Shown here: piece after piece, positions 15,460 through 29,837 of the stretch | Position numbering within the stretch: position 1 is the first letter of the stretch | Layout of the letters: each line of letters opens with the position of its first letter | Sequence record: OR525698.1 | DNA: 64,000 nt | Strand: one strand, 5' to 3' | Origin: Escherichia phage vB-Eco-KMB43 | The notes under the pieces: generated by a model | Told to the model about the DNA's origin: nothing | Seen by the model: the letters and a program-made list of their open reading frames with translations, nothing else | Databases searched by the model: none | Program-made: the position numbers and the translations under genes

Positions 15460-15942
15460 TTTTGCTAAATCATTGCAATATTTTAGTGCCTTAGTTTGAA
15501 ATTCTGCGCTGTTAAGTTCTTCATAACGGTCATAATCACCGTTTAATGCTGCTTTTCTTGCTTCTTGCTCTATCTGCATGTCAGACATGATAATACAGCG
15601 ATCCCGTGCTTTCATCTTCTCAAGTTGTATAAACTCTTCTTTCTGTTTGCGCAATTCTTCTTGACGCTTCTTTTCTTCTCGTGCTTTCTCTTCCCGCGCT
15701 TCTTTGATTGCATCCTTGAACATCTGCGTTTGTGGTGCTAAACCAACTTTAACGCGACCCACGTCTCGACGTTCCATTTTAGAAATAAAGCATGATTCGA
15801 TCTGATCATCACTTGCATATGCTGCTTTACATTCACGAAGCAAGAAAACCGGATCTGATTTAGCATTCATCATAGCTTCCATGTTAGCACAACCAGTAAG
15901 CATGAATGCAGACGCAAGACCAATTAGTTTAATCATTTTCAT
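15457..15942 (-). CDS. predicted lipoprotein (161 aa)
   Basis: N-terminal signal peptide with lipobox LTGC; charged Lys/Glu-rich repeat region. Confidence 0.6.
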   Translation of the reverse strand: MKMIKLIGLASAFMLTGCANMEAMMNAKSDPVFLLRECKAAYASDDQIESCFISKMERRDVGRVKVGLAPQTQMFKDAIKEAREEKAREEKKRQEELRKQKEEFIQLEKMKARDRCIIMSDMQIEQEARKAALNGDYDRYEELNSAEFQTKALKYCNDLAK

Positions 15943-16763
15943 TTAGTCACCTCACCGAAAATTGTAAATTGTCTACGATTCTCATCGCCGAAAGATTCTA
16001 CTACGTCGTTTACCTTGACGCAAGTCCCGCGCGGTAAAATTACTTCACATTCGCAAGGATTCCATGCAATTGACCCAACAACAAAACCTTTATGATCTTT
16101 TACGTCAATTACCCACGATACATTACAAGAATGTTGCATCTTTCCGGTCATCGATTCATATCGATTCTCACAATAAAGGCTAGTGCTGTTTGATAGCCAT
16201 CCTCCAAAGATGATCGGTGTCATGCTGGTCGATACAAAGTTTTTAAAGGTAAACTCCTTATCTTCAATGATGCGCTCTATTGTCTGAATGTCAAGATGTT
16301 GACCGCGATAAAGAGTACCGTTTAACTTTTCGGTTTTATCCATGACACAATCCATCAAATCGACAATCTCTGATATCTCGTCGGTCATGTCTTCTTCCCC
16401 TAAGAGAGCACCATTTACCCATTCGTATTGTTCAGATACATAATCACAGATTGCATTATATTCTGCTGGGGTTATGTTGTTATGTTTGTAATGTTTGAAT
16501 ACATTATCTCCAAAGTCTTCGGAATGTACTTCATACATCACATTAATGATTTTCTTGACAAATCCATAATCTTGTGTCTCGCGCTCAAGGAAGCGGATAA
16601 CCTTCACATAATCATCAAAGTTAATCTGATCGCTGATCATCTCAGTGATCATGTAACCATTAATCCCCTCAATGTCATATGTTTCAATATAATTGTCCAT
16701 ACGTTCCATCATTGATTCGCGTGATTCTTCCGAAAGACGAAAATCCTGTAATTTCTTGAACAT
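15939..16763 (-). CDS. Alt-like ADP-ribosyltransferase paralogue (274 aa)
   Basis: C-terminal region YRGQ...FVSTSMTPIIFGG...ECEVILPRG parallels the Alt catalytic R-S-E region (YR..., FVSTSL, EILLPRG) seen in the adjacent alt gene. Confidence 0.6.
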   Translation of the reverse strand: MFKKLQDFRLSEESRESMMERMDNYIETYDIEGINGYMITEMISDQINFDDYVKVIRFLERETQDYGFVKKIINVMYEVHSEDFGDNVFKHYKHNNITPAEYNAICDYVSEQYEWVNGALLGEEDMTDEISEIVDLMDCVMDKTEKLNGTLYRGQHLDIQTIERIIEDKEFTFKNFVSTSMTPIIFGGWLSNSTSLYCENRYESMTGKMQHSCNVSWVIDVKDHKGFVVGSIAWNPCECEVILPRGTCVKVNDVVESFGDENRRQFTIFGEVTK

Positions 16764-16842: not shown

Positions 16843-18894
16843 TTACATTTTAAATTTATCTGGCATTGCGTCTACAGATACCAGATCAGCGATAAGCTGA
16901 CGTAGAGTTGCCTTATCTGCTTTCTTACGTTCGGTTTTAGCTTCGCTAATGAAGCTGGAGAAAGACAGGTCAGAAGCAGGTTTAATAACACCTTCACGGA
17001 TGAATGCATCACCGTCTGCGATCATCTCGCCAGATTCTTGTAATGCTGCCAGTTCATTTTTGTTCATAATATGTGCCTCAATGTAATAAGTTTCTTGTGA
17101 ATCCGTCGATGCCGTAGCACGAGTTACCGTATCAAAGGATAACACAACACCGCGAGGAAGTAAAATCTCGCATTCTTTGTAAGCAAATGCTTTGTTACCT
17201 ACTGGCAACACAGGGATGTTTTCCGCGCCAGCAATGGAGAAAGCAACATTAGCGCCACCTTCACCGCGAGAGCCAGCCATAGAATCAACACCAGCAACGG
17301 CACTAGCCACGTTTGCATTCCAGCCGCCAAAAATGTTAGGTGCAAGGGAAGTGCTCACATAGTTTTTAAAGTAAAACGCTTTTTGCTTACGTGCAGTTTC
17401 CCACATTTGAGTCCGGAAGTCCATACCACGATACAGAATAGTACCCGGATCAAGTTTAACGCCATAGTTGGAGAAGGCATTATCCAGTGCATCGCACATC
17501 TTGACCAATTCTTCTGGATCTGCGATGCCTTCAAACTCTTCCAGCTTACGATCAGTTAGGAAGTTGTTCATATTGATGTATGCTGCATCGGCATATTCGC
17601 TCAATACAAAACCTTCCGCGCCCGGCAGATCAAGATCAATATCTGCCATCATTTCACCCATGTTGCTAGCAATTGCTTCAAACATACCGGAAGCAACATT
17701 ACGTAGGGCATCGGTTTTAATCTGGGTGATATGACTACGCAGCATTTCAGCTTTTACATCTGCTGGCATAGACTGGTCTACTCGATCCATTGCCAGGGCG
17801 GTGATCTTGTTTTCGAATACTTCCTCGCTCATGATTTCTTTTAAGCGTTTGATTGATGCTGCGATAACTTCCGCAGACAACGGATCATATTGATCCTGAA
17901 CTTTTACCAGTTCGCTTACTGCGTATTTTGCATCTGCTTCGCTTTCAAAAATAGTACGCATGAAACCATAGCGAGTGATAATATCACTTGTCCAGTCATT
18001 CAGAGAACGGGCGGTTGAACGTTCTAATGCTTGACGATCAATCAGAGTATTAAACTGTTTCTTAGGTTCGGCTTCGGTGATATCTTCTTCCGGTTTAAGA
18101 TTAATTTTTTCTGGATGATTCACATAGTCGCTGTTATAGGTCGCTTGAGTTTTCAGCATTTCTTCTTTAGTCAAACGAGATTTAGCCGCTACGCGTTGTT
18201 CTGCTTCCGCGTTTCGTTCTTCTTCTGACACAAGACTAGCCGCATACGCCTCATCTTTAGTCAGAGATTCACCAGTAGCCTTAGATACCCAGCGATCACC
18301 TAAATCACTTTCTACTTTAGTGAACAAGGATTCATCAAGTTTAATCCCTTTAATCTTATCAATCGCCATCCCGCGACGCTTGACAACAACTAAAGCGATC
18401 TTTTTGCTGGTCATTACTTCCTGCTGGAATACTTCAAACTTCGGTGTACGACGCACCAAACGCTCTATAACGCGCTTAACCAGTTCGGTCTTACCTTTCA
18501 TGCGGGATACGTTAAAACGGAACATAACAGCGTCTAATTGCGCTTTACGGGCTGTTTCCATAACCACATCAAAAGCACTTGCCATAACTGCAATCGGGTT
18601 ATCTCCTAGACCATTTTTAAGCTGTACAATACGACCGCTTTTGTTCATTTCGCACAGTACAACATGTGCGGTCTTGTCACCCATACGAATGATTTTAGGT
18701 GTTTTGTTGGTGAAGTTACAAAGACGGACAATCACATCTTTATCGCGTGTCTGTACTGCAAAAAGCTGTTTAGGATTCTGCTTAGGCTTTAAGCACTGTA
18801 CCGGAGCAATACTGCCAAAGTTTTCTTCCTCTTCCGTCAACAGCCATTTCTCGAAAGATTCAATCATTAGATCGTCGATTTCTAAGTTAAACAT
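16843..18894 (-). CDS. alt: Alt ADP-ribosyltransferase (head-packaged)
   Basis: 683 aa (T4 Alt is 682 aa); LFTKVESDLGD and C-terminal FYFKNYVSTSLAPNIFGG...ECEILLPRG match T4 Alt. Confidence 0.85.
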   Translation of the reverse strand: MFNLEIDDLMIESFEKWLLTEEEENFGSIAPVQCLKPKQNPKQLFAVQTRDKDVIVRLCNFTNKTPKIIRMGDKTAHVVLCEMNKSGRIVQLKNGLGDNPIAVMASAFDVVMETARKAQLDAVMFRFNVSRMKGKTELVKRVIERLVRRTPKFEVFQQEVMTSKKIALVVVKRRGMAIDKIKGIKLDESLFTKVESDLGDRWVSKATGESLTKDEAYAASLVSEEERNAEAEQRVAAKSRLTKEEMLKTQATYNSDYVNHPEKINLKPEEDITEAEPKKQFNTLIDRQALERSTARSLNDWTSDIITRYGFMRTIFESEADAKYAVSELVKVQDQYDPLSAEVIAASIKRLKEIMSEEVFENKITALAMDRVDQSMPADVKAEMLRSHITQIKTDALRNVASGMFEAIASNMGEMMADIDLDLPGAEGFVLSEYADAAYINMNNFLTDRKLEEFEGIADPEELVKMCDALDNAFSNYGVKLDPGTILYRGMDFRTQMWETARKQKAFYFKNYVSTSLAPNIFGGWNANVASAVAGVDSMAGSRGEGGANVAFSIAGAENIPVLPVGNKAFAYKECEILLPRGVVLSFDTVTRATASTDSQETYYIEAHIMNKNELAALQESGEMIADGDAFIREGVIKPASDLSFSSFISEAKTERKKADKATLRQLIADLVSVDAMPDKFKM

Positions 18895-19498: not shown

Positions 19499-20050
19499 TT
19501 ATTTTTTTAATTGCTCATCTTGCAATAGGGCAATCACATGCTGGCGATGTTCTTCCGATTGAGGCACACCGAAAAAGTTTGTTTTGTAGAAATACTCTAA
19601 TCGGTCTTCTCGTGTGCTCTCTTCCATCATGATCGCGGGTAGTCCGAGATTTCGGAAACGTCGCTTTTCTGCTGGCGTAAAATCACTGTAATACAACATA
19701 GAATCATCATTACCAGCAATGCTAAACTCATCCTTCATAAAGGAGAATATTGCGTTTAAACGCTGTTTACCGTCCACGATTTCGATCTCATAGCGAGAGC
19801 CATCATCAATCTTAGCCATTGCGATAGCACCGACCGGAAAATCATTAATCAGGTTTTCGATAAACATACGTTTGTTTTCGGTGTCCCATACCAAAGGACG
19901 CTGATAATCTGGGTTCATGTTGATATAGCCATCTTCTAACCATGCTTCGTAAACAGAGATGACAAAGTTTTTAGTATTGGTATAGTAACGGCGTTTAGGC
20001 GTTAAACGGTTCATGTTATAGTCTCCTGAATGGATCATCACGTAAATCAA
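19499..20050 (-). CDS. DUF262 (ParB-like nuclease domain) protein
   Basis: 183 aa; DYQRPLVW...FPVGAIAMAK...EIVDGKQRLNAI matches the DUF262 DGQQR signature region. Confidence 0.55.
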   Translation of the reverse strand: MIYVMIHSGDYNMNRLTPKRRYYTNTKNFVISVYEAWLEDGYINMNPDYQRPLVWDTENKRMFIENLINDFPVGAIAMAKIDDGSRYEIEIVDGKQRLNAIFSFMKDEFSIAGNDDSMLYYSDFTPAEKRRFRNLGLPAIMMEESTREDRLEYFYKTNFFGVPQSEEHRQHVIALLQDEQLKK

Positions 20051-20348
20051 TATCTTTTAAGAACTCATCCCATGAATGGCGGATATTGTTCTTAATTCTC
20101 CAGATAAGCGCAGGGATTGAACGCTCTCCCATCTGGAAGTATGGATCATATGATCCGTATGCCCAATATGCTACTACAATTCCACAATCAGCGCAATAGT
20201 ATTCTATTTCACTTGCTGGCGACCAAAGTCCATCAATATGATCGGTGATCTTGCTTTCGATGTTATGGCTATGACAATCAGGGCAACGGATGCAATGACC
20301 TTGTTTATCGTAATTTGACGTTAGCGAATACTTAAACAATCTCATCAT
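20016..20348 (-). CDS. small zinc-ribbon-like protein (110 aa)
   Basis: CxxC...CxxC arrangement (CIRCPDC, CADCG); start overlaps the upstream stop. Confidence 0.5.
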   Translation of the reverse strand: MMRLFKYSLTSNYDKQGHCIRCPDCHSHNIESKITDHIDGLWSPASEIEYYCADCGIVVAYWAYGSYDPYFQMGERSIPALIWRIKNNIRHSWDEFLKDIDLRDDPFRRL

Positions 20349-21061
20349 AGATCCTTATTTGCTTCAAATACTGCCTTTGCGAATCCTCGCGGGGTAAGTG
20401 ACCTGATAGTCTTTGTTTTCGTTCCTTTCCCGCCTAGCTTAGAATGCTGTTTACTGTACCCTTTATTAATCTGCAAAGGTTTCTTTTCTGGCATTATAAA
20501 GCCTTGTCCGGTCCATAAGCAAGTCTTTTTCGGGTACATATCACGGGCGGCGATATACTCAGGAAAAGTAGGATGTTTATCATCTTCCGGCAAATAACCG
20601 CCATATTCCCACGGATGGAACATATAATCAGGCTTACGCCACATGCTAGAGATAACGCTTACAGGATTCTCTATCATGTAGGGAACTCCTAGCCATTCAC
20701 CCAAATAAGCGGTTATTTTAGCTGCCCGTACATCATGAACTTGAATCAATGGTCCTTGCTCTCGTTTCTTTCGTTCAAAGTGTGCAGCGCCACTAACAGC
20801 TAAATTGGTGCACGGTGGGAATGCAAAGATAATATCCGGTTTCCCCCATTCAAGGTCCATTGCTCTTTCCAGCCAGTTCAAATCAATCCAGGTGTTTACA
20901 TAGGTAATGTTTGGATGTTCAAATCTGGTATTATACTTTTTGTATGTACCGTGGTCGGCGTCATCCGCATTAAAGCAGACTACCTTATGACCTGCTTTAG
21001 CCCATTCTAGCCCCATTATCCCCGATCCGTCAAAGTTACAGAATATTAATTTTTGTTTCAT
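20345..21061 (-). CDS. C5-cytosine methyltransferase-like protein (divergent, 238 aa)
   Basis: FCNFDGSG (motif I-like), IIFAFPPCTNLAVSG (motif IV-like Pro-Cys), MIENP (ENV-like); no clear motif VIII or X, so family assignment is tentative. Confidence 0.45.
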   Translation of the reverse strand: MKQKLIFCNFDGSGIMGLEWAKAGHKVVCFNADDADHGTYKKYNTRFEHPNITYVNTWIDLNWLERAMDLEWGKPDIIFAFPPCTNLAVSGAAHFERKKREQGPLIQVHDVRAAKITAYLGEWLGVPYMIENPVSVISSMWRKPDYMFHPWEYGGYLPEDDKHPTFPEYIAARDMYPKKTCLWTGQGFIMPEKKPLQINKGYSKQHSKLGGKGTKTKTIRSLTPRGFAKAVFEANKDL

Positions 21062-21303
21062 ATACGCCCCTTTAATCCAACACAGATTTTAGAAGGTTCT
21101 TTGCCGTGCCACATTAAGTAAAGTCCATTAATGCGGCCTTGTTTTGTATATGATTCTTTTCTGATCTTCTTATAGTGTCGTGCTTCCTCAGCCGATTGTT
21201 TAGAATACCAATCATAAAGGAAGAGGCACAAAGGCCAACCATTAGCGGCCTTAATGCAGTTATTAAGAAATTCCTTATTGCGTTTAATTAATTTTCTTTT
21301 CAC
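21058..21303 (-). CDS. hypothetical protein (81 aa)
   Basis: Intact ORF, start overlapping the upstream stop. Confidence 0.5.
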   Translation of the reverse strand: MKRKLIKRNKEFLNNCIKAANGWPLCLFLYDWYSKQSAEEARHYKKIRKESYTKQGRINGLYLMWHGKEPSKICVGLKGRI

Positions 21304-21551
21304 GCTGCCCCCATTGGTTTGATAGTAACAGAATCTAAAAGACCTTTGTTAGCCAGTTCGCGGCAAGTTTTCAGATCCGCAACTTCCCAGCCAGCCGCAA
21401 TCAGGTTATCGATGAGGCTGTTAGCAACTTCTTCGCTCATGAAAGAGCACTGTTTGCCGATGGTGTAGCGTACACGCTGTAATTTCAGTTTACGGAAGCC
21501 TTTAACGTTCAGGTCTTTAGCGATTTTCTTTGCGGTTTCGATGTTAGCCAT
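21300..21551 (-). CDS. hypothetical protein (83 aa)
   Basis: Intact ORF with GGAGAATCAAAC RBS downstream of a promoter cassette. Confidence 0.55.
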   Translation of the reverse strand: MANIETAKKIAKDLNVKGFRKLKLQRVRYTIGKQCSFMSEEVANSLIDNLIAAGWEVADLKTCRELANKGLLDSVTIKPMGAA

Positions 21552-21587
21552 TGTTTGATTCTCCTAAGTGGTATCTAGTCTTGATGG

Positions 21588-21622
21588 TTGTATTGTAGGG
21601 GAGTTATCCTCCCCTGTCAACA
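21588..21622 (-). promoter_or_regulatory. early promoter cassette with palindromic spacer
   Basis: Reverse complement TTGACA-GGGGAGGATAACTCCCC-TACAAT. Confidence 0.6.
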
Positions 21623-21634
21623 CTTTTTATAAAA

Positions 21635-21802
21635 TTATTTGTTAATTTCCGGTGCGTTGCTAGGATAGTAACCTTCTTTAACTCCGAGGTATTTCGCAAC
21701 CATCCCTACAATCTTCTGTGCTACTACAATGTCAAATTTCAGATAATCTTCGCCGTGGGTTTCAATGATATATGCTTCACATGCTGCTTTAGTCTCGAAC
21801 AT
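21635..21802 (-). CDS. small hypothetical protein, paralogue A (55 aa)
   Basis: MFETKAACEAYIIETHGEDYLKFDIVVAQKIVGMVAKYLGVKEGYYPSNAPEINK; near-identical second copy at 25256-25423. Confidence 0.55.
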   Translation of the reverse strand: MFETKAACEAYIIETHGEDYLKFDIVVAQKIVGMVAKYLGVKEGYYPSNAPEINK

Positions 21803-21832
21803 TTTGATTCTCCTATTTCGTTTCGGTATGTG

Positions 21833-21868
21833 TGTATTATAGGGGATCTCCCGATCCCCGTCAACAAC
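21833..21868 (-). promoter_or_regulatory. early promoter cassette with palindromic spacer
   Basis: Reverse complement TTGACG-GGGATCGGGAGATCCCC-TATAAT then conserved leader and GGAGAATCAAAATG. Confidence 0.65.
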
Positions 21869-21880
21869 TTTTTTTTAAAA

Positions 21881-22162
21881 TTATTCGTGATTAGTTTCGA
21901 TGTTGTGCATTTTGCACCAGTTCAGCCAATCACCCAGATCCTGATAGTTAATGCTTTTATCTGCTGCCATCGTTTTTGTCTTGATACCCATATGTGCGTT
22001 ATGAGTAAGCATTTTTACAGTGAACTCAATTTTATCACCTTTAGCTTTAACATCAACCAGTTTGGTCCACTGGCTACCAGCGCCGCGAATGTTCATACCA
22101 ACGATGTTTCCGATGTATGCTTCTTTGTTTTTCAGGATTTCGGTTGCTTTGATGAATTTCAT
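21881..22162 (-). CDS. hypothetical protein (93 aa)
   Basis: Intact ORF with GGAGAATCAAAAATG initiation context. Confidence 0.55.
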   Translation of the reverse strand: MKFIKATEILKNKEAYIGNIVGMNIRGAGSQWTKLVDVKAKGDKIEFTVKMLTHNAHMGIKTKTMAADKSINYQDLGDWLNWCKMHNIETNHE

Positions 22163-22192
22163 TTTTGATTCTCCAGTTCGTTTCGGTATGTG

Positions 22193-22226
22193 TGTATTAT
22201 GCTATTTTCTTACTTTGGTGTCAACA
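22193..22226 (-). promoter_or_regulatory. early promoter cassette
   Basis: Reverse complement TTGACA-N17-CATAAT with conserved leader. Confidence 0.6.
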
Positions 22227-22233
22227 ACTTTTT

Positions 22234-22503
22234 TTAGATATTTTCAGAAATAAATTTTAAAACTTGACGTAAATGTTTCTCATCTTTGATAGTCGCCGGA
22301 AGTTCTTCTTTTACTTCCTGTGCAAGATAGATATTTCCGTTCCAAGTGAAAGATCCGTCTTCGTTTACGCGATAGCTGAACATCCACTCGCAATCATTTT
22401 CGATTTCATATACACACAGAAGAGTGTAATCTTCAAAGCTATTGATTTCAAGGTCGAAGCCGTGACGTTTTGCAAAGTTGGTAGTGGTTTTAGTCAGTGC
22501 CAT
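22234..22503 (-). CDS. hypothetical protein (89 aa)
   Basis: Intact ORF with GGAGAATCAAACAATG initiation context. Confidence 0.55.
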   Translation of the reverse strand: MALTKTTTNFAKRHGFDLEINSFEDYTLLCVYEIENDCEWMFSYRVNEDGSFTWNGNIYLAQEVKEELPATIKDEKHLRQVLKFISENI

Positions 22504-22540
22504 TGTTTGATTCTCCTAAGTGGTATCTCGTCTTGATGGG

Positions 22541-22575
22541 TGTATTATGCTATAGGCGTGATCTGGTGTCAATGC
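22541..22575 (-). promoter_or_regulatory. early promoter cassette
   Basis: Reverse complement TTGACA-N17-CATAAT. Confidence 0.55.
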
Positions 22576-22820
22576 TTTTTTTAATTTTATGCAATAAAAA
22601 GACGACACTAAGGTCGGCACATTTTAAAAATTCTTGCCATATATGCAAGCCTCATAATCTAGAGGATGACCGCCAATCCTACCCGGCTTAATATTCCAAC
22701 CGCATCGATATTTGCTGACCATGCTAACAGTTTCGGTTCTTAGAGCATTTTCTTTGCAAATCATACCCCATAAATTCTTTTCTATAAGGACAGTCCGCTT
22801 TGCAAGTTGGCGGTTCTACG

Positions 22821-23012
22821 TCATTTAGCGGGTCGGAAGCAGTTGGCTTTATTATCAATTCTTTGTTTGCAATAATCATAAGCACATCCCATTGAAGACA
22901 ATTTAACATCTTCGCAATAAGTGTTGAATCCGTCAAACACGGTCACTTCGTATTTGACTCCATCAGCGATAGCTTTTACTTTATACCATCCATGCTTGTA
23001 TAAAATCTTCAT
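22821..23012 (-). CDS. small Cys-rich hypothetical protein (63 aa)
   Basis: ORF with promoter cassette and RBS upstream; overlapped in another frame by ORF 22724-22936, which may hold a second small gene from an internal ATG. Confidence 0.5.
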   Translation of the reverse strand: MKILYKHGWYKVKAIADGVKYEVTVFDGFNTYCEDVKLSSMGCAYDYCKQRIDNKANCFRPAK

Positions 23013-23041
23013 CTTTATTTCCTCAATCTCGTTTCGATGGG

Positions 23042-23077
23042 TGTATTATGCTATAGGCTAGACCAGGTTGTCAACAA
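23042..23077 (-). promoter_or_regulatory. early promoter cassette
   Basis: Reverse complement TTGACA-N18-CATAAT. Confidence 0.55.
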
Positions 23078-23104
23078 CTTTTTTAATTTTTTGGAAATAA
23101 AAAA

Positions 23105-23122
23105 GCCGACGCTAAGGTCGGC
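23105..23122 (-). terminator. candidate terminator downstream of ORF 23131-23439
   Basis: GCCGAC-GCTAAG-GTCGGC hairpin flanked by A-runs on the plus strand. Confidence 0.6.
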
Positions 23123-23130
23123 TAATAAAA

Positions 23131-23439
23131 TCATTTAGACAAATAATCATTCTGTGCAATCCGGTCGGCGTATGCTGGTGTTACGTCAATCGCCAACACT
23201 TTAACGCGTGCTTTCTTGCGACCTGGGTTTTCTCGTAACCAGTGCTCATGACCGTGCACATTTTTATATTTTGATGCGGTTTCGAAGGTACGGATCGGAC
23301 CTGGATAATCTGCGTAAAGGATCTCTAGGTCTTCGGTGATGTAAAAATATACATCATAATTACTGTTCTCTAGTTTAAGCAGAGAATTGCGAAATTGTGG
23401 TAAATTCTCGCGGGTAAATTCAACTACAAGATTTTTCAT
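23131..23439 (-). CDS. member 1 of a tandem paralogue family (HxHW...V.P..AD motif)
   Basis: Start taken at ATG 23437-23439 with GAGGA RBS (track ORF extends further upstream in frame); ...YFYITEDLEILYADY...HGHEHWL...KVLAIDVTPAYAD. Confidence 0.55.
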   Translation of the reverse strand: MKNLVVEFTRENLPQFRNSLLKLENSNYDVYFYITEDLEILYADYPGPIRTFETASKYKNVHGHEHWLRENPGRKKARVKVLAIDVTPAYADRIAQNDYLSK

Positions 23440-23488
23440 AGTGATATCCTCATTCAGATAGATTAAAAGGGGCTTAACGCCCCGTATA

Positions 23489-23776
23489 TTAAAACAGTCC
23501 TTCCTGTACACCGTAGTAGAGTTCGTCACTGATAATTTCATTAATGCGACGGTGTGCATATTCCTGATTTGCGAAGTTGTCAGCAAGTTCTACTTTAGTT
23601 TCGCCGTCATGAGTCCATTTAGTGATAACTTTACCATCTGCAAATTTGAAGTTGAACTCTTTAGCTACTGCATCGCGTACCAGACGTGCGAACTTGTTGT
23701 TACGGATTGCATTATCGGTTTCGTGTGCAGCGTGAGCAAATTTGTTAACTTTCAGAGTGATAGTAATGTATGCCAT
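23489..23776 (-). CDS. hypothetical protein (95 aa), paralogous to ORF 26658-26969
   Basis: Shares ...RLVRDAVAKEFNFK... with ...IREVRKALAKEFNTK... of ORF 26658-26969. Confidence 0.55.
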   Translation of the reverse strand: MAYITITLKVNKFAHAAHETDNAIRNNKFARLVRDAVAKEFNFKFADGKVITKWTHDGETKVELADNFANQEYAHRRINEIISDELYYGVQEGLF

Positions 23777-23819
23777 AATTTGATTCTCCTAGTTAGAAAG
23801 TGTATCTCGTTTCGATGGG

Positions 23820-23853
23820 TGTATTATGCTATACACCCGATCCATTGTCAACG
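23820..23853 (-). promoter_or_regulatory. early promoter cassette with palindrome over the -10 region
   Basis: Reverse complement TTGACA-N17-CATAAT; GGGTGTA...TACACCC inverted repeat. Confidence 0.55.
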
Positions 23854-24183
23854 CCTTTTTATAAAATAATTTTCGATATCTTTATGATGTTTTTCTCGTG
23901 CTTGGTCTGCCTCGGCTGGCGATACGTTGGAAGCGATAATCTTCACTACTGTTGCACCTTTTTCGGTGTCCGACACCCAATGATTATGGAAACCGCTATT
24001 ATTAAACACTTGATAAGAAAATGATTTAATGCTAGGGAAATTATATGTGTAATAGCGTACCTTTAATTCTGAATCTATGTATAGATAGATCACCGCACCT
24101 AGATAGACCGTCTCACTCGTTCCATCAACTAACAGTAGAGTATTTCGCAATTCTTCTAAATTGTCTTTTGTAAGAAAAATCAT
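23848..24183 (-). CDS. member 2 of the tandem paralogue family
   Basis: ...YLYIDSELKVRYYTYNF...GFHNHWVSDTEKGATVVKIIASNVSPAEADQAREKHH. Confidence 0.6.
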   Translation of the reverse strand: MIFLTKDNLEELRNTLLLVDGTSETVYLGAVIYLYIDSELKVRYYTYNFPSIKSFSYQVFNNSGFHNHWVSDTEKGATVVKIIASNVSPAEADQAREKHHKDIENYFIKRR

Positions 24184-24197
24184 AGTATAATCCTCAA

Positions 24198-24533
24198 TTA
24201 AACCAAATTAACTTTGGTGTTGTGGTGTTTTTCTCGTGCTTCGTCCGCTTCTTCCGGTGTCACGTTACGAGCGACTACAATAACACTTGCTGCCTCTCCG
24301 TGATGAGAGATCTCTACCCAATGGTTATGATTTGTGAATCCGTGTTTTATTGCGTAAGCGAACGGCTTGGACGTCCAGTAGTTACTATAATATCGTACAT
24401 TTAGATCGCTATCAATGTACAAATATGTGCTGTCGTTTACATTGCCACTAACAACAAAAACAAGACAATTGCGAAGATCTGGCAATATTTTGTCTGTCAA
24501 TTTTATAATGTGACTGTTCATAATTAACACCAC
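24198..24533 (-). CDS. member 3 of the tandem paralogue family
   Basis: ...YLYIDSDLNVRYYSNYW...HNHNHWVEISHHGEAASVIVVARNVTPEEADEAREKHH. Confidence 0.6.
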   Translation of the reverse strand: MVLIMNSHIIKLTDKILPDLRNCLVFVVSGNVNDSTYLYIDSDLNVRYYSNYWTSKPFAYAIKHGFTNHNHWVEISHHGEAASVIVVARNVTPEEADEAREKHHNTKVNLV

Positions 24534-24733
24534 TCAAGAGTTTTTGAAAACACATCTATCCATTGTTGAGTATATGCAGTTTCTTTCCACGAGACAATAC
24601 CAGTAGAATAATGATTCTTGTTTCCAGAAAAGGACGGGCATTTTGATGCATCTTCCATCATCTTTTCGGCGAACTCTGGTTCGTATACTCGCAAGATCTG
24701 TTGATATGCTTTGTAGTCTTTAAATTTGCTCAT
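24524..24733 (-). CDS. hypothetical protein (69 aa)
   Basis: Intact ORF between paralogue-family members. Confidence 0.45.
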   Translation of the reverse strand: MSKFKDYKAYQQILRVYEPEFAEKMMEDASKCPSFSGNKNHYSTGIVSWKETAYTQQWIDVFSKTLEWC

Positions 24734-24998
24734 AATCGTTAACTACCTTATCAGCTTCTTTTATTGTTTTTACATCAACTGCGATAACCCGTAAAGGTTC
24801 GTCGTGGTTCCACCAATGATCGTGAATATCAGCTTGTGATTTATCACCAAAGGAATCACGAATATCATTTTTACATTTATAGCTAATGTGACCGTCATAG
24901 TCAACATAAAGGTAATTATCGAAAATCGGCGTTTTTAAGATCATGCCGAAAAATCTTTCTTTGTGTGTCTTATCCAGTGTTGCAGTAATTCGCATCAT
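24720..24998 (-). CDS. member 4 of the tandem paralogue family
   Basis: ...YLYVDYDGHISYKC...DIHDHWWNHDEPLRVIAVDVKTIKEADK. Confidence 0.55.
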   Translation of the reverse strand: MMRITATLDKTHKERFFGMILKTPIFDNYLYVDYDGHISYKCKNDIRDSFGDKSQADIHDHWWNHDEPLRVIAVDVKTIKEADKVVNDYEQI

Positions 24999-25010
24999 AA
25001 TATATTCCTC

Positions 25011-25190
25011 TTAGAAAGGGATGGTCATTTCTTGAGCTTGTACATTCTCGTTAGGATTAAACTTCATCCAACCGATATTGTCTACCAGCATATGCACATT
25101 TTTATCATATCCTACGTGAGTAGTCAATACTAAATGTGCTTTACCTTCAACGATGATTTCCATGTACTTCTGAACTTCGATAGCTTTCAT
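25011..25190 (-). CDS. small hypothetical protein (59 aa)
   Basis: Manual translation MKAIEVQKYMEIIVEGKAHLVL...; GGAGAATCAAAAATG initiation context. Confidence 0.45.
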   Translation of the reverse strand: MKAIEVQKYMEIIVEGKAHLVLTTHVGYDKNVHMLVDNIGWMKFNPNENVQAQEMTIPF

Positions 25191-25214
25191 TTTTGATTCT
25201 CCGTTTGTTGTCTT

Positions 25215-25255
25215 GATGGGAGTATATTACTACTCCCTTTAATCATTGTCAACTA
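25215..25255 (-). promoter_or_regulatory. early promoter cassette, class with palindrome spanning the -10
   Basis: Reverse complement TTGACA-N17-TAATAT within GGGAGTAGTAATATACTCCC palindrome. Confidence 0.55.
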
Positions 25256-25423
25256 TTATTTGTTAATTTCCGGTGCGTTGCTCGGATAGTAACCTTCTTT
25301 AACACCCAGATATTTTGCGACCATTCCGGTGATCTTCTGTGCTACTACAATGTCAAATTTCAGGTAGTCTTCACCGTGGTTTGCTACAATGTATGCTTCG
25401 CATTCTGCTTTAGTCTGGAACAT
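25256..25423 (-). CDS. small hypothetical protein, paralogue B (55 aa)
   Basis: MFQTKAECEAYIVANHGEDYLKFDIVVAQKITGMVAKYLGVKEGYYPSNAPEINK; about 90 percent identical to ORF 21635-21802. Confidence 0.55.
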   Translation of the reverse strand: MFQTKAECEAYIVANHGEDYLKFDIVVAQKITGMVAKYLGVKEGYYPSNAPEINK

Positions 25424-25454
25424 TTTTGATTCTCCTATATCTCGTTGGTATGTG

Positions 25455-25488
25455 TGTAGTATAGGGGATCACCGATCCCCTGTCAACA
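25455..25488 (-). promoter_or_regulatory. early promoter cassette with palindromic spacer
   Basis: Reverse complement TTGACA-GGGGATCGGTGATCCCC-TATACT. Confidence 0.6.
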
Positions 25489-25493
25489 ACTTT

Positions 25494-25844
25494 TTATTCT
25501 TCATCTTCATCTTTATCTTGATATGCGTACGTCATAAATTTGTCTGCTACTTTGTCCGCGTTTTCAGGTTCTACGTCTGACGCTAGGACAACAGCTAGTT
25601 CTGTTTTGTCGTTTCCATCATACCAATGATTATGAGTGTCGTTTTCTTCGATATAAAACGAATCATTTGGAGTTGTGCGACAATATACGTCTAAATTCCC
25701 ATCGATATAAAAGATCCAATCCGAATACAAAATGATTGTTTTAGCAAGATTTTTATTGCCTTCAACGAAAGGTTCGGCTACAAACAAATTAGTATGTTCC
25801 ATAGTATTTTTCCTCAAAATTATACAGCTTCGTAAACTTCCCAA
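25494..25844 (-). CDS. member 5 of the tandem paralogue family
   Basis: ...IFYIDGNLDVYCR...DTHNHWYDGNDKTELAVVLASDVEPENADK. Confidence 0.55.
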   Translation of the reverse strand: MGSLRSCIILRKNTMEHTNLFVAEPFVEGNKNLAKTIILYSDWIFYIDGNLDVYCRTTPNDSFYIEENDTHNHWYDGNDKTELAVVLASDVEPENADKVADKFMTYAYQDKDEDEE

Positions 25845-26011
25845 TGTCCAACACCAGCACGCTTAACGAAAAGGTTTTCTTTTATGTTATTCATAAACGT
25901 CTGGATGGATTTAATTCGTTTGGAAGGTTTCCAGTCTTCGTTGGTATTGCGTCGATACATCATAACATTACCAGACCGCTTATATTCAGCAACCATTTTA
26001 AGACCACACAT
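25820..26011 (-). CDS. hypothetical protein (63 aa)
   Basis: Intact ORF; start overlaps the upstream stop. Confidence 0.45.
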   Translation of the reverse strand: MCGLKMVAEYKRSGNVMMYRRNTNEDWKPSKRIKSIQTFMNNIKENLFVKRAGVGHWEVYEAV

Positions 26012-26067
26012 AATATTATCCTCAATTTGTGGGAGAGTATTACCCTCCCGATTATTGTTATACTACA

Positions 26068-26388
26068 TTACGCAAAATGGCGTGTCAATGCTTCTTTTGC
26101 TGTTCCGCTAAGATTCTCTATCTCTCCTGGCATAACATCAACCGCCAGAACTTCTACAACATCCTCTGATCCTAACCAGTGAGTATGACCTTTGTAGAAC
26201 TTGATAATCAGACTACCTTCCTCATCCCATTTAACGCTATCGCTAGCCCACCACACATCACCGTCGATAAAGTTGATGTAAAGCACACTACGCCACATTG
26301 AATTAATTACTTTCAATACTGCGCCTTTCATATCTTCCACGGTGTGGTCTTCCATTTTGAAGACCTCGCCTACCTGAACTTTTGCCAT
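26068..26388 (-). CDS. member 6 of the tandem paralogue family (most divergent)
   Basis: ...YINFIDGDVWWASD...KGHTHWLGSEDVVEVLAVDVMPGEIE. Confidence 0.5.
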   Translation of the reverse strand: MAKVQVGEVFKMEDHTVEDMKGAVLKVINSMWRSVLYINFIDGDVWWASDSVKWDEEGSLIIKFYKGHTHWLGSEDVVEVLAVDVMPGEIENLSGTAKEALTRHFA

Positions 26389-26405
26389 TTAGTCACCTCT
26401 CTTTA

Positions 26406-26585
26406 TTACATAACAATTACGCCAGCCGTTGAAAGTTGATGTTTCAACTGAGCATTTTCTGCTACTGTCAAATCAATGATTTCTTGTGACGCTGCAATCA
26501 TATAGCCATTGGTGATATTGTTTTGCATCAGTTCAATGGTTTCTTCGTTGTAGCGGATTTTAGCGATGATTTCGTTGAAGTTCAT
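26406..26585 (-). CDS. small hypothetical protein (59 aa)
   Basis: Manual translation MNFNEIIAKIRYNEETIELMQNN...; GGAGAATCAATTATG context. Confidence 0.45.
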   Translation of the reverse strand: MNFNEIIAKIRYNEETIELMQNNITNGYMIAASQEIIDLTVAENAQLKHQLSTAGVIVM

Positions 26586-26617
26586 AATTGATTCTCCTAG
26601 TTCGTTTCGGTATGTGT

Positions 26618-26651
26618 GTATTATAGGGGAGTTTAACCTCCCCTGTCAACA
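26618..26651 (-). promoter_or_regulatory. early promoter cassette with palindromic spacer
   Basis: Reverse complement TTGACA-GGGGAGGTTAAACTCCCC-TATAAT. Confidence 0.65.
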
Positions 26652-26657
26652 ACTTTT

Positions 26658-26969
26658 TTAAAGTTTTTCCATGATAACGGTCATAATTACATCTTCTGCG
26701 CGAGCGGTCAGATTATCAGCGTCAGCATGTGGGCGGTTGGTTGTTACAGAGATAACACCGTTGCGCACTGGTTTGATATTGATATCAAGATGATCCGCGA
26801 AACGTTCGCCAGTTACAGAATGAATTTTGGTGTTAAATTCTTTTGCCAGTGCCTTGCGAACTTCACGAATCAGGATAGCGTTTTTCAGTTGGTTCTCCGC
26901 GCTCATGGTCTTCTGAGTGTTCATGGTTCCGTCGAAGTCAATCATTGGCAGCGTTACGATGTATTTCAT
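26658..26969 (-). CDS. hypothetical protein (103 aa), paralogous to ORF 23489-23776
   Basis: Shared ...VRKALAKEFNTK... block; GGAGAATCAAAAATG context. Confidence 0.55.
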   Translation of the reverse strand: MKYIVTLPMIDFDGTMNTQKTMSAENQLKNAILIREVRKALAKEFNTKIHSVTGERFADHLDINIKPVRNGVISVTTNRPHADADNLTARAEDVIMTVIMEKL

Positions 26970-27011
26970 TTTTGATTCTCCGTTTAAGAAAGTGTGTTTC
27001 GTTTTGATGTG

Positions 27012-27045
27012 TGTAGTATAGGGGATACGTGATCCCCTGTCAACA
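27012..27045 (-). promoter_or_regulatory. early promoter cassette with palindromic spacer
   Basis: Reverse complement TTGACA-GGGGATCACGTATCCCC-TATACT. Confidence 0.6.
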
Positions 27046-27056
27046 ACTTTTTTGAA

Positions 27057-27401
27057 TTATTTTTTCATGAGCTTAATGGCTTCTTCCATAGCCAGCACAT
27101 TTCGATAGTTAGGGTATCGTGTTAGATCGTCATACATTCGCTTAAGGGTGGAAACTTCCTCAAACTCTGGGTTTTCTAGATACAGTTGAACAAATTGTTT
27201 CTCTACCATCTCGGCTTTTAGCTTGTCTGCTTGTTCCTGTTCATATGATTTCGTTGGACCCAACACCAACAAAATGATAAAGGTGATCAACGGGCTAATG
27301 ATCAATGATAGGATAACATAACCAATAACGCTACGGTTTAAACGGCTTGCGTACATGCCTACAAGGAAAACAAAAAGGATATAGATAAACAGAAAGAACA
27401 T
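27057..27401 (-). CDS. small membrane protein (114 aa, two predicted TM segments)
   Basis: Hydrophobic stretches FFLFIYILFVFLVGMYA and VILSLIISPLITFIILLVLG. Confidence 0.55.
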   Translation of the reverse strand: MFFLFIYILFVFLVGMYASRLNRSVIGYVILSLIISPLITFIILLVLGPTKSYEQEQADKLKAEMVEKQFVQLYLENPEFEEVSTLKRMYDDLTRYPNYRNVLAMEEAIKLMKK

Positions 27402-27408
27402 ATAATGG

Positions 27409-27882
27409 TTACTCCTTATTTTCGCGCTCGTACTTTTCGAAATAAAATTCTACTGGCTGGTCGTGGATTGACAGCAAGCCAAAGCGTTTAGCCGCTCGCA
27501 ATCCCATATTGCGCTGAATGTACTTCTGGAAGTTCTCGCGTATACACTTACGCCAGGATTCTAAGCCCATGCAGCTTTTATAAAGATTGCATTGCACACA
27601 TGCCGGATTCATGTTATCAAGTATATCATGCTCCGGTTTATGCATTCCTACAACCTTATACTTCCACGATCCATCATCATTACGGACAATTCGTCCATTT
27701 TCATCATAGACTACCTTTGAGCGTCGCAATACTGGTTTGATGTGGTCTGCGTGCCAGCGATCCCCTAGTTCCTCGCCACAATAGGCACAACGTCCACCAT
27801 ATTTCATTTTCAGGATCTGGCGTTGCTCTTTCTTTGACAATTTTTTAGGTTTAGGGGCTTTCGCCCCTTCATTATCACACAT
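27409..27882 (-). CDS. HNH endonuclease (freestanding, homing-endonuclease-like)
   Basis: CAYCGEEL...HADHIKPV...NMNPACVQCN: canonical CxxC-HxxH-N-CxxC HNH motif; start overlaps the end of the ligase gene. Confidence 0.75.
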   Translation of the reverse strand: MCDNEGAKAPKPKKLSKKEQRQILKMKYGGRCAYCGEELGDRWHADHIKPVLRRSKVVYDENGRIVRNDDGSWKYKVVGMHKPEHDILDNMNPACVQCNLYKSCMGLESWRKCIRENFQKYIQRNMGLRAAKRFGLLSIHDQPVEFYFEKYERENKE

Positions 27883-29377
27883 CGAATACCTCTTTTACTG
27901 TATTTGCAGTGGTCTTGTCGTAGCGAATACGTTTGATGATTGGGAGAAATAAAGAGAACTCCGGTTCATCTTCTTTACGTGATTTGCTGCGAATGTACCC
28001 GTTGCATGTCATCTCAATGACTTTTCCAATCAGGTTATGACGGTCAGCCCATAACATTTCTCGGTCGAGTTCATTTCGACGATCGAACGGAATTACACGT
28101 TCAGTACCATCATCACCTTTTTCGGTTGTAGTGTCGGTTAATCCCGATCCGGTGTTAGTCATCATTCGTCCGCACGCACTACGGACAGTAAAACCGCCTA
28201 CCTTATTGGGGTCTTTACTATGCGGATATACATCAACAATTTCCGCGTCGAAGTCAATCACTTCTTTAAATTTAACCTGATCTTTACTACGGCGATCTTC
28301 AAATACACCATGTAAATTTTTAAGGATAATACCTTCTAAGCCCATGTTGACATAACGATGATATACTTCGCGAGCTTCATCGATATTGTTAACTACAGTG
28401 TTTTCTATGATCTGAACACGAGGATCGTTAAGTTCTTCAACAATCTGTTTTAGTTCTTCGAATCGATCTTTATATTGCTTCGTTGCTTTCTCGTTTCCGT
28501 AATACACATCACGGTCGATAACATCCCAGACAGTGTAAACAATACATTGGGCTTCTTCTTTTGGAATAGTTCCTTTAAGTGATTTGTTGAGGATACCATT
28601 TCCGGTCTGACGATCTGCAACAACGGATTCTTTCACTGCTTCCGCTACTGGCGTTAATGGCATTTCCTCTTCTTCAAATATCCATGACAGAGTACCATCA
28701 TAAACGCTTTCAACGAAGTTCTGCGCTGGTGTTTGCGAAAGGGTAGGCATATATACCAATTCGCCATCTAGAACAATTCCACGGCCTCGTAGACGCTCTA
28801 AAACCGCAAACAAATCATCAAGCCCTTGATAGGTATTACCTGAGCGGGTATAGATTGCTAATGTTTCCCCGTCAATATCAGCCATACCACGAGCGCCATC
28901 GCTTTTAAGTTGTGCATACGCCGGATACTTGATATTAGCAATAGTCTTATCAGAACATGACGATGCAAGGTGGCACGGTTGCTGGGGGATCAGTTTCTTC
29001 CATACCTTGTTTGCAGTGGTAGCGGAACAGCCGCATTCCAGATCACGATTCAGGACCATCATTGCAACTTTAGCATCATCCTCTGACAAGCAAGTCAGAG
29101 TATCGGTAACTAGCTGTAATGCTGCATTACCAGTTACTTGACGCGTGGCAAGTTTATTTTTAAAGACCTGTAATGCACCGGATAAAGACAATACAGACGA
29201 ATAGCGAGACGGTTTATCGTATTTCTTTACGCCAAACGTAACCTGTTTGCAATATGCCAGATAAAAGCATTCTTTCAGCGTTTCATTGCTCGCGGATTCT
29301 TTCAGAATCTTTTCTTTCAGCGATGTTTTGTCTGTTGCTGCAAGCTGATTAATGATATTAAGAATTGACATTTTCAC
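27875..29377 (-). CDS. 30: ATP-dependent DNA ligase gp30
   Basis: 500 aa; FAQLKSDGARG (KxDG adenylation site), LDGELVY, EGIILKN, and overall collinearity with T4 DNA ligase. Confidence 0.9.
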   Translation of the reverse strand: MKMSILNIINQLAATDKTSLKEKILKESASNETLKECFYLAYCKQVTFGVKKYDKPSRYSSVLSLSGALQVFKNKLATRQVTGNAALQLVTDTLTCLSEDDAKVAMMVLNRDLECGCSATTANKVWKKLIPQQPCHLASSCSDKTIANIKYPAYAQLKSDGARGMADIDGETLAIYTRSGNTYQGLDDLFAVLERLRGRGIVLDGELVYMPTLSQTPAQNFVESVYDGTLSWIFEEEEMPLTPVAEAVKESVVADRQTGNGILNKSLKGTIPKEEAQCIVYTVWDVIDRDVYYGNEKATKQYKDRFEELKQIVEELNDPRVQIIENTVVNNIDEAREVYHRYVNMGLEGIILKNLHGVFEDRRSKDQVKFKEVIDFDAEIVDVYPHSKDPNKVGGFTVRSACGRMMTNTGSGLTDTTTEKGDDGTERVIPFDRRNELDREMLWADRHNLIGKVIEMTCNGYIRSKSRKEDEPEFSLFLPIIKRIRYDKTTANTVKEVFDV

Positions 29378-29837
29378 CTCGTTTTGTTAAACGTTCACGA
29401 ATATCATTGAGGATACTACAAAATTCCGATTCAGTCAATATAGTCTTTAACGGATCAGTTCCACCTATGCTATGACGTAATTTCTTATTTCCGGTAGCAA
29501 GTAATGCTTTACAAAATTCTGGGTTATTCCGTGCCATCGTAACAAATGCCAGATGTACCAGTCTGTAATAATGCTCACTCATTCGATGAATCGGGCGACC
29601 CTGAAAATATAACATGTGATTCTCAATCTTTTCAGTTCTTCCGGTTCTTTTTGCTTTGCCACCGTGCATCAAAAAGATTTCTCTTTGTCTCTGAGGGTTC
29701 TTAAATCTTAGCCCCTGTAAAAATCCTTCTGTGCTGTTAATATCGCAGCCAAATAAACGGAATGGTCTTTTATTGAAATTACTCAATTCACCCGATGGAT
29801 AAGGTCCACCCGCATAGATATCAATTTCAGAAGTCAT
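29358..29837 (-). CDS. NADAR (DUF1768, YbiA-like) family protein
   Basis: IYAGGPYPSGELSNFNKRPFRLFGCDINSTEGFLQGLRF aligns with the E. coli YbiA core (INFYSTSDDYGDFSNFAAWPIKVDGKTWPTSEHYFQAQKF). Confidence 0.6.
   Translation of the reverse strand: MTSEIDIYAGGPYPSGELSNFNKRPFRLFGCDINSTEGFLQGLRFKNPQRQREIFLMHGGKAKRTGRTEKIENHMLYFQGRPIHRMSEHYYRLVHLAFVTMARNNPEFCKALLATGNKKLRHSIGGTDPLKTILTESEFCSILNDIRERLTKRGENVNS

Follow-up and report, generated by a model that had tools for sequence, protein, structure and literature searches.

Six diverged paralogues interleaved with PeSL promoters between alt and the DNA ligase gene of a Krischvirus phage

We analysed 64,000 nucleotides of Escherichia phage vB-Eco-KMB43 (record OR525698.1; this whole stretch is called the window hereafter), in which an earlier note, made from the letters alone, had described a tandem array of six related open reading frames (ORFs) at 23131-26388. 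Judged from their sequences, these six ORFs, here m1 to m6, are genuine diverged paralogues of one family of about 100 amino acids (aa), and it is almost certain that this is a real, functional family of accessory genes. The window comes from an RB49/JSE-like Krischvirus, a T4-type phage: when positions 22000-28000 were compared with phage records, the 58 that matched were all RB49-like coliphages of this genus, the closest being JSE (95.2% identity over 93% of the query) and RB49 (94.5% over 90%). Both proposed flanks of the array could be verified, alt (16843-18894) on one side and the DNA ligase gene (gene 30; 27875-29377) on the other, both on the minus strand. In T4 alt and gene 30 are parted by the 62-aa alt.1 alone, so the block of about 9 kb found here is a lineage-specific hyperplastic region. 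The corresponding block of RB49 comprises ORF185-212, and its annotation from alt to gene 30 is a series of 'hypothetical proteins' on a single strand.

All six ORFs were found where the earlier note had placed them, on the minus strand. A MAFFT alignment of their products showed the common architecture that had been described, namely Y-x-Y-I-D..L.V, then H-x-H-W, then a V.VLA.DV.P.EAD block, and the six copies of the window all share residues Y33, H64, H66, W67, A83 and V86 (m1 numbering). Low identity was also borne out, although at a slightly different range: pairwise values run from about 20 to 45% instead of 25 to 50 percent, with 22-29% against m1 and 44.6% for the closest pair, m2 and m3. 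An alignment and a hidden Markov model (HMM) had been suggested as the way to check the similarity. We built HMMs from five copies at a time and ran each against the 1033 stop-to-stop ORFs (at least 30 aa) of the window. The copy left out was always retrieved, at E-values between 1.9e-5 and 1.2e-19 (m1, 1.1e-13; m2, 1.6e-19; m3, 1.2e-19; m4, 1.9e-5; m5, 8.1e-11; m6, 1.5e-9), whereas unrelated ORFs reached 0.014 at best. With the same models, no seventh copy was detected among the 1033 ORFs of the 64-kb window; in all, the scan for the family covered the window plus the alt-ligase block of each of six relatives.

Shine-Dalgarno sites are present upstream of all six genes. In the ligase-to-alt direction, m6 (26068..26388, minus strand as are all that follow; 106 aa) is the orthologue of RB49 ORF208 and has the ribosome-binding site GAGAGG before its ATG. 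The next gene, m5 (25494..25802; 102 aa), occupies the RB49 ORF206 slot; its product is strongly acidic (pI 4.1, net charge -17), and this is the slot with the greatest allele diversity. Then come m4 (24720..24998; 92 aa), corresponding to RB49 ORF203, m3 (24198..24521; 107 aa), m2 (23848..24183; 111 aa) and finally m1 (23131..23439; 102 aa), corresponding to RB49 ORF197. Two start codons were revised. The start of m3 is most likely ATG 24521, as in the JSE annotation, and not GTG 24533, where the mechanically defined ORF begins; that of m5 is most likely ATG 25802 in place of TTG 25844. A GAGGA lies 9 nucleotides (nt) upstream of ATG 25802, and the m5 orthologues all begin with MEQT or MEHT.

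The promoter cassettes seen between the genes are the promoter-early stem-loop (PeSL) elements reported for RB49 and phi1 (PMC2839356; PMC4122927), in a region noted for PeSL-driven cassette turnover of ORFans (PMC2839356). Ten PeSL copies align well across 21.5-27.1 kb. Their common parts are an A-rich tract, TTGACA, a spacer of 17-18 nt, TATAAT or CATAAT, a conserved leader (ACACACAT..CGAAACGA) and a ribosome site (GGAGAATC); five of the ten carry a GGGGA..TCCCC hairpin in the spacer. Near-consensus sigma-70 promoters were found at 27043, 26649, 25486, 25252, 23851 and 23074.

On the minus strand, the first PeSL of the block (27015..27043; TTGACA-17-TATACT, with a GGGGATC..GATCCCC spacer hairpin) drives a 103-aa ORF and is the counterpart of RB49 PeSL211/210, for which terminator activity was reported (PMC2839356). 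The next (26620..26649), a 12/12 match to the consensus, drives a 59-aa ORF and m6, the latter as second gene of its unit. Upstream of a 63-aa ORF and m5, within the 3' end of m6, lies a promoter-like site (26060..26088; 10/12). At this site (26025-26088, minus strand) we also observed a GGGAGGG..CTCTCCC hairpin that falls past the -10 element and outside the spacer, a layout unlike that of the canonical PeSLs. Directly downstream of m5, the PeSL at 25458..25486 drives a 55-aa ORF; strong promoter activity was measured for its RB49 counterpart, PeSL206/205 (PMC2839356). A PeSL-like promoter (25224..25252; 10/12) heads a five-gene unit composed of a 59-aa ORF, m4, a 69-aa ORF, m3 and m2. The last PeSL (23823..23851) overlaps the 3' end of m2 and drives a 95-aa ORF, a hairpin and m1; the hairpin (GGGGC..GCCCC followed by a T-run; 23469..23483) stands between the 95-aa ORF and m1, and another hairpin with a T-run, resembling an intrinsic terminator (23104..23123), directly follows m1. 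Every transcription unit is headed by a PeSL and the family gene is second or later in it, never first after the PeSL. The family genes thus lie on the early strand in three or four short operons under PeSL early promoters, and are predicted to be expressed early.

We compared seven Krischvirus loci: the window, RB49, JSE, JK32, Skers, kvi and the metagenome locus L005. All seven hold six members in the identical ligase-to-alt order. A neighbour-joining tree divided the family into five subfamilies: A (m6), B (m5), C (m4), D (m1, and m2/m3 with RB49-type ORF200) and E (RB49-type ORF199 together with both halves of P0084, a natural fusion described below). Sequences from divergent uncultured phages fall in each of the five, so the duplications are older than those lineages. 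Thus, the repeated duplication and divergence that the earlier note had proposed holds insofar as the genes are real paralogues; however, the process is old and not ongoing, as shown by the same six slots in 7/7 loci and by subfamilies shared with divergent phages.

Within slots, the Nei-Gojobori dN/dS, calculated from seven loci only, is 0.04-0.35 in every case, which indicates purifying selection and that the genes are truly coding. Against the window, m5 has a median dN of 0.149 and m1 one of 0.093, while the ligase, HNH and methyltransferase genes and the interleaved ORFs stay at 0-0.04. The dS values, 0.91 in m5 and 0.37 in m1, are high as well; other genes range over 0.02-0.38, and just one of them exceeds 0.2. 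A high dN accompanied by an inflated dS argues for old alleles moved by recombination and not for locally faster substitution. Within the region, allele diversity and cassette exchange are concentrated chiefly in this family; L005, for instance, carries an m4 allele that is 57% identical. Across the wider neighbourhood (window positions 20000-29500 against the loci L001, L005 and L008-L011), dS of adjacent genes spreads about 40-fold, from 0.02 to 0.9, so the block is a fine-scale recombination mosaic whose gene-sized patches differ in age.

The clearest exchange concerns m2 and m3. Two subfamily D genes (m3 and m2) are found in the window and in JSE, where RB49-type phages instead have ORF200, of subfamily D, and ORF199, of subfamily E, the latter in the slot of m2. 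DNA homology to RB49 ends at 23892, beside the 23851 PeSL, and returns at 24519, the start of m3. This is a two-gene cassette replacement, m2/m3 in the JSE type against ORF199 and ORF200 (plus ORF201) in the RB49 type. Breakpoint 23892 adjoins a PeSL, while 24519 is a gene boundary without one.

Individual copies may also be lost. Both JSE and kvi have a frameshift in their m1 orthologue, and the m5 orthologue of JSE is without its N-terminus (JSE, locus L008, 4187-4494 and 6547-6841; kvi, locus L011, 7001-7258). Either sequencing errors or true pseudogenes of viable phages would account for these disrupted copies; unless they are errors, single copies are dispensable.

Outside the genus, relatives are few. 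A profile search of 5.8 billion proteins returned 79 matches, all of them orthologues of one or other of the six copies, with identities of 55% or more to it. HMMER, run exhaustively on 1.84 billion cluster representatives, returned only 20 clusters at E<=1e-3, of 68-203 aa; a further search, with a profile of 29 sequences, yielded no additional members and no informative domain fusion. When three divergent members were compared by tblastn with 50,697 phage genomes, only Krischvirus records were found. T4 gave no family relative among 1207 ORFs read over 142 of its 169 kb (best E 0.46), and scans of IMG/VR with the alignment and with the members P0084, P0088 and P0085 returned no loci. Taken together, these searches place the family in Krischvirus and a handful of uncultured T4-like relatives only.

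Among the latter, a T4-like contig (L003; 18.2 kb of its 20.5 kb were read) has a ligase 72% identical to that of the window and two subfamily B members in its ligase-alt block; the neighbouring 95-aa ORF is 71% identical to its window counterpart, but the m5-like gene only 43%. A 2.1-kb contig from metagenome SRR8048117 (L002) contains five consecutive family domains, two of them joined in P0084 (823-1434), a tandem fusion of 203 aa. A third contig, from metagenome SRR8048112 (L007), has one family member plus a 260-aa fusion ORF (318-1100), in which two tandem 69-aa modules (phrog_8471) are in frame with a subfamily D domain. This ORF could be a true fusion that functionally links two families, or else a read-through or assembly artefact. 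P0084 and the L007 ORF are the only domain fusions found, one of domain to domain and the other of a doubled 69-aa module to the domain, and their partners have no assigned function.

The earlier note did not recognise the family, and neither do the domain databases. Pfam gave no significant match for 29 members, only single-member noise (PROCT, 0.0044; Cupin_2, 0.18), and the family profile had zero matches up to E 10 among all PDB sequences. In PHROGs, five of the six members match phrog_9345 (best E 2.1e-48) and individual members match phrog_15965, phrog_16486 and phrog_15972 at 1e-57 to 1e-71, all of them annotated as function unknown. The sequences are thus already catalogued, but the family is divided among several unannotated groups whose entries make no statement of function, structure or paralogy. 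In the searchable literature, we found no paper that names these PHROGs or the RB49 locus tags, or that describes the family.

We then considered the structure of the proteins. AlphaFold2 models of m1 (from a 22-sequence alignment) and m5 (30 sequences) had a pLDDT of about 79 and a pTM of 0.76. Both follow the same order: beta1, a short helix, beta2, beta3 (bearing Y-x-Y-I-D), beta4, a loop, beta5 and a C-terminal helix. In the models, beta5 corresponds to V-L-A-x-D-V, the C-terminal helix begins with P-x-E-A-D, and H-x-H-W lies in the beta4-beta5 loop, a stretch of 25-30 residues modelled with lower confidence. The m1 model could also be superposed with independent BFVD models of further paralogues, at TM values up to 0.83, and the family fold is predicted to be one small alpha/beta domain; a fold comparison with the PDB gave no match to the family model. 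In charge, the paralogues are far apart, from pI 4.1 in m5 to 7.9 in m1. Moreover, in orthologue groups of 36 m1, 16 m5 and 21 m6 sequences, high-entropy positions flank H-x-H-W on both sides. The motif itself is not immutable: the RB49-type m5 allele has Ser at the position of the first His (TSNHW), and another member, P0082, lacks this His.

Several known families were examined and, on sequence and predicted fold, rejected. A papain-like cysteine peptidase or Cif-type deamidase (Cif, viral DUBs, UfSP, AvrPphB, C39) would need a Cys that is present in some members only. An HNH nuclease was discarded as well: there is no Pfam HNH match, the H-N-H letters are contiguous and in a loop, and the HNH gene of the region is a separate one (27409-27882). 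H-x-H also occurs in metal sites, as in the H-F-H-W of alpha-carbonic anhydrase. For a cupin or another site of this kind, however, Cupin_2 was matched by one member only (E 0.18), a third conserved His or Glu is lacking, some alleles have lost the first His, and the models predict a sheet of five strands plus a helix.

What would such proteins do? The explanation we favour, tentatively and as somewhat short of an even chance, is that the family consists of dispensable early binders directed at the host or its defences. The six would be cytoplasmic proteins built on a single conserved scaffold, each of which would bind, and probably inhibit, a separate host protein or a variant of one, the likeliest targets being polymorphic defence or host-range factors. 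The beta4-beta5 loop around H-x-H-W would form the contact or ligand site, and new specificities would be supplied by allele exchange among co-circulating phages. The natural tandem fusion P0084 suggests that the working unit is at least a dimer. The arms-race reading put forward in the earlier note finds only indirect support, in the divergent alleles, the m2/m3 cassette swap, the frameshifts and the variable flanks of H-x-H-W, and is qualified by the purifying selection seen in each slot.

A number of observations weigh against a family of defence-directed binders. Omega is below 1, without gene-wide positive selection, in values drawn from only seven loci. Six slots that are stable genus-wide would suit a housekeeping-like or complex-forming role equally well. 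In addition, invariant His and Trp residues in paralogues that are 20-30% identical are commoner at catalytic or ligand sites than at interfaces that serve protein-protein contact alone, an objection tempered by the RB49-type m5 allele, with Ser for the first His, and by P0082, which has none. The placement of the motif at a surface or interface is predicted from secondary structure and pLDDT only. Apart from these points, comparison with structurally characterised anti-defence proteins (Ocr, Arn, Tad1/Tad2, Acb1/Acb2, Gad1 and the Acr families) revealed no sequence or fold similarity, and the PADLOC defence models gave nothing significant, a single one of 29 members matching PD-T4-2_B at E = 0.029.

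The paralogues might instead be host-takeover modulators unrelated to immunity, each tuned to a different conserved host machine in transcription, translation, proteolysis or the nucleoid; Mrh, Srh, Srd and MotB of T4 are examples of such modifiers of host physiology. This would agree with the early promoters, the location beside alt, the genus-wide stability of the six slots and their purifying selection, and the wide spread of charge, from pI 4.1 to 7.9, suggests different partners. Nevertheless, conserved machines would leave the allele diversity, the cassette swap and the loss of copies from viable isolates unexplained, and the family is absent from T4 and from other coliphages that exploit the same host. 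We regard this explanation as somewhat unlikely.

More doubtful still is a ligand- or metal-binding sponge, or a mini-enzyme, in which H-x-H-W, with conserved Tyr and Asp at the ends of strands, would make up a metal or nucleotide pocket, possibly at a dimer interface; the ligand, a signalling nucleotide or some other metabolite, would differ from one paralogue to the next. This explanation overlaps with the anti-defence one. The replacement of the first His by Ser in the widespread RB49-type m5 allele and its absence from P0082 speak against it, as do Asp residues that are only about 70% conserved and the lack of any match to a sponge, phosphodiesterase or metalloprotein family in Pfam or the PDB.

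We also considered that the six might assemble into a single hetero-oligomeric early complex. Six slots in identical order, as found in 7/7 Krischvirus loci, would be expected of such an assembly, and the two-domain fusion P0084 and the adjacent family genes of L002, with five domains in 2.1 kb, point in the same direction. Obligate complexes rarely tolerate the loss of copies or swaps of subfamilies, however, and both are seen here: copies are frameshifted in the viable phages JSE and kvi, the subfamily E member is exchanged for a second D member in the window and JSE, and L003 has just two members, both of subfamily B, in the 18.2 of 20.5 kb read. A complex of this kind is thus improbable. 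Finally, the ORFan turnover driven by PeSLs in this region (PMC2839356) and the lack of a detectable function could suggest functionless passengers of PeSL shuffling, or a chance likeness among small ORFs, but this is hardly credible given leave-one-out E-values down to 1e-19, dN/dS well under 1 in every slot, subfamilies kept in phages whose ligase is only 72% identical, and Shine-Dalgarno sites in 6/6 genes.

The type of locus is already known. The PeSL-ORFan cassettes of RB49 and phi1 (Arbiol et al. 2010, PMC2839356; Comeau et al. 2014, PMC4122927) belong to the same locus in a close relative, with the same anatomy as in the window (A-rich tract, TTGACA, spacer hairpin, TATAAT, leader and GGAG ribosome-binding site), and there too ORFans lie between core genes and differ in content among close relatives. 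In the searchable text of both papers, the ORFs are handled as individual ORFans; a six-member family is not mentioned and the word 'paralog' occurs zero times. The window also departs from the PeSL-ORFan scheme of these phages in that its family genes are never first after a PeSL and that only one of the two m2/m3 breakpoints lies at a PeSL. Known, then, are the PeSL-rich hyperplastic region of ORFans and, in PHROGs, the sequences themselves; apparently new, as far as the searchable literature goes, is the recognition of six ORFans per genome as one family, with its subfamilies, slot order, motif, allele dynamics and absence of fold relatives.

Clusters of small early genes for host takeover or anti-defence are familiar from other phages, such as the host-takeover module of SPO1 and, in T4, Arn, Dmd, Mrh/Srh and the internal proteins (IPs), with the internal-protein locus of the T-even phages. 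The block described here resembles them in its small, non-essential early genes, its dense promoters and its polymorphism of presence/absence or of alleles. Unlike those clusters, which consist mostly of unrelated genes, it holds one family six times, and we found no kinship in sequence or fold. A further parallel may be drawn with multi-paralogue immune-evasion families of large DNA viruses in which one scaffold meets many targets, such as the Bcl-2-like proteins of poxviruses. Here too old duplications, paralogue identities of about 20-30%, a conserved fold with variable surfaces and purifying selection would go together; virus, host and fold are different, and the parallel is an analogy only. 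The family could even be an undescribed fold that serves RB49-like phages as a modular scaffold for immune evasion, in which the six paralogues and their exchangeable alleles would each neutralise a different defence system or its signalling molecule, as dimers and by way of a hypervariable loop around the invariant HxHW site; we consider this specific proposal unlikely.

Hyperplastic regions of T4-type phages are thought to carry adaptive genes of host range, and almost no ORFan of RB49 type has an assigned function. Six anonymous 'hypothetical proteins' per genome now become one defined family with a motif, five subfamilies, a predicted fold without a solved relative, and signs both of dispensability and of allele exchange concentrated on a single loop. 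The six genes, with the ORF199 and ORF200 alleles, form a bounded set of candidates for anti-defence and host-range screens, and phi1 and JSE-like phages are already used for therapy. If the family is a scaffold of inhibitors with many targets, it would offer new tools against defence systems; if it serves immune evasion, the locus would be a natural anti-defence library comparable to anti-CRISPR loci. If it is not an inhibitor scaffold, it would be an ordinary lineage-specific accessory family.

The small ORFs interleaved with the family all belong to PHROGs annotated as function unknown and, as had been noted, have no kinship to the six copies. On the minus strand, from the ligase side, they are the 103-aa ORF (26658..26969; phrog_7474; RB49 ORF210 slot), the 59-aa ORF upstream of m6 (26406..26585; phrog_14803; with homologues in L002 and L003), the 63-aa ORF upstream of m5 (25820..26011; phrog_16334), the 55-aa ORF (25256..25423; phrog_8009; with PeSLs on either side and a second copy at 21635-21802), the 59-aa ORF upstream of m4 (25011..25190; phrog_15082), whose L002 homologue precedes the tandem-fusion member, the 69-aa ORF between m4 and m3 (24524..24733; phrog_8471) and the 95-aa ORF upstream of m1 (23489..23776; phrog_7474), a paralogue of the 103-aa ORF. 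Obligate pairing of a family member with the small ORF upstream of it, in the manner of toxin-antitoxin systems, was rejected: in L003 the homologues of these ORFs are reordered and unpaired with family members.

Two further duplications are seen among these ORFs. The copies of the 55-aa ORF, corresponding to RB49 ORF191 and ORF205, lie in repeats (21634-21805 and 25255-25426) that share 87% nucleotide identity and are each bracketed by PeSLs, and they look like a fairly recent segmental duplication mediated by PeSLs. The 95-aa and 103-aa ORFs match phrog_7474 at E of about 1e-43 each and one another at about 2e-4, and form a second, much more diverged pair of paralogues; at 71% identity to its L003 counterpart, the 95-aa ORF is far better conserved than the six-copy family.

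At the ligase edge of the block, the HNH endonuclease gene (27409-27882, minus strand; Pfam HNH E 5e-6) shares 8 nt with the 3' end of the ligase gene and is probably a homing-endonuclease insertion. At the other edge, a second ADP-ribosyltransferase gene (15939-16763, minus strand; 274 aa; ADPrib_exo_Tox E 4e-16) lies directly downstream of alt, and the pair is shared with JK32, Skers, kvi and L003. Lastly, a trio of minus-strand genes (19499-20017, 20016-20348 and 20345-21061) includes one for a 172-aa protein made solely of a GmrSD_N (DUF262) domain (Pfam E 4e-20). One of its neighbours encodes a zinc-ribbon protein, with a weak match to the TFIIB Zn-ribbon under the Pfam cutoff; the other has no Pfam match in the window, and in RB49, JSE and Skers its orthologue carries a DNA methyltransferase annotation. 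It is unusual for a phage to bear one half of a type IV restriction enzyme next to a methylase; this half could act as a decoy, an inhibitor or a nuclease.

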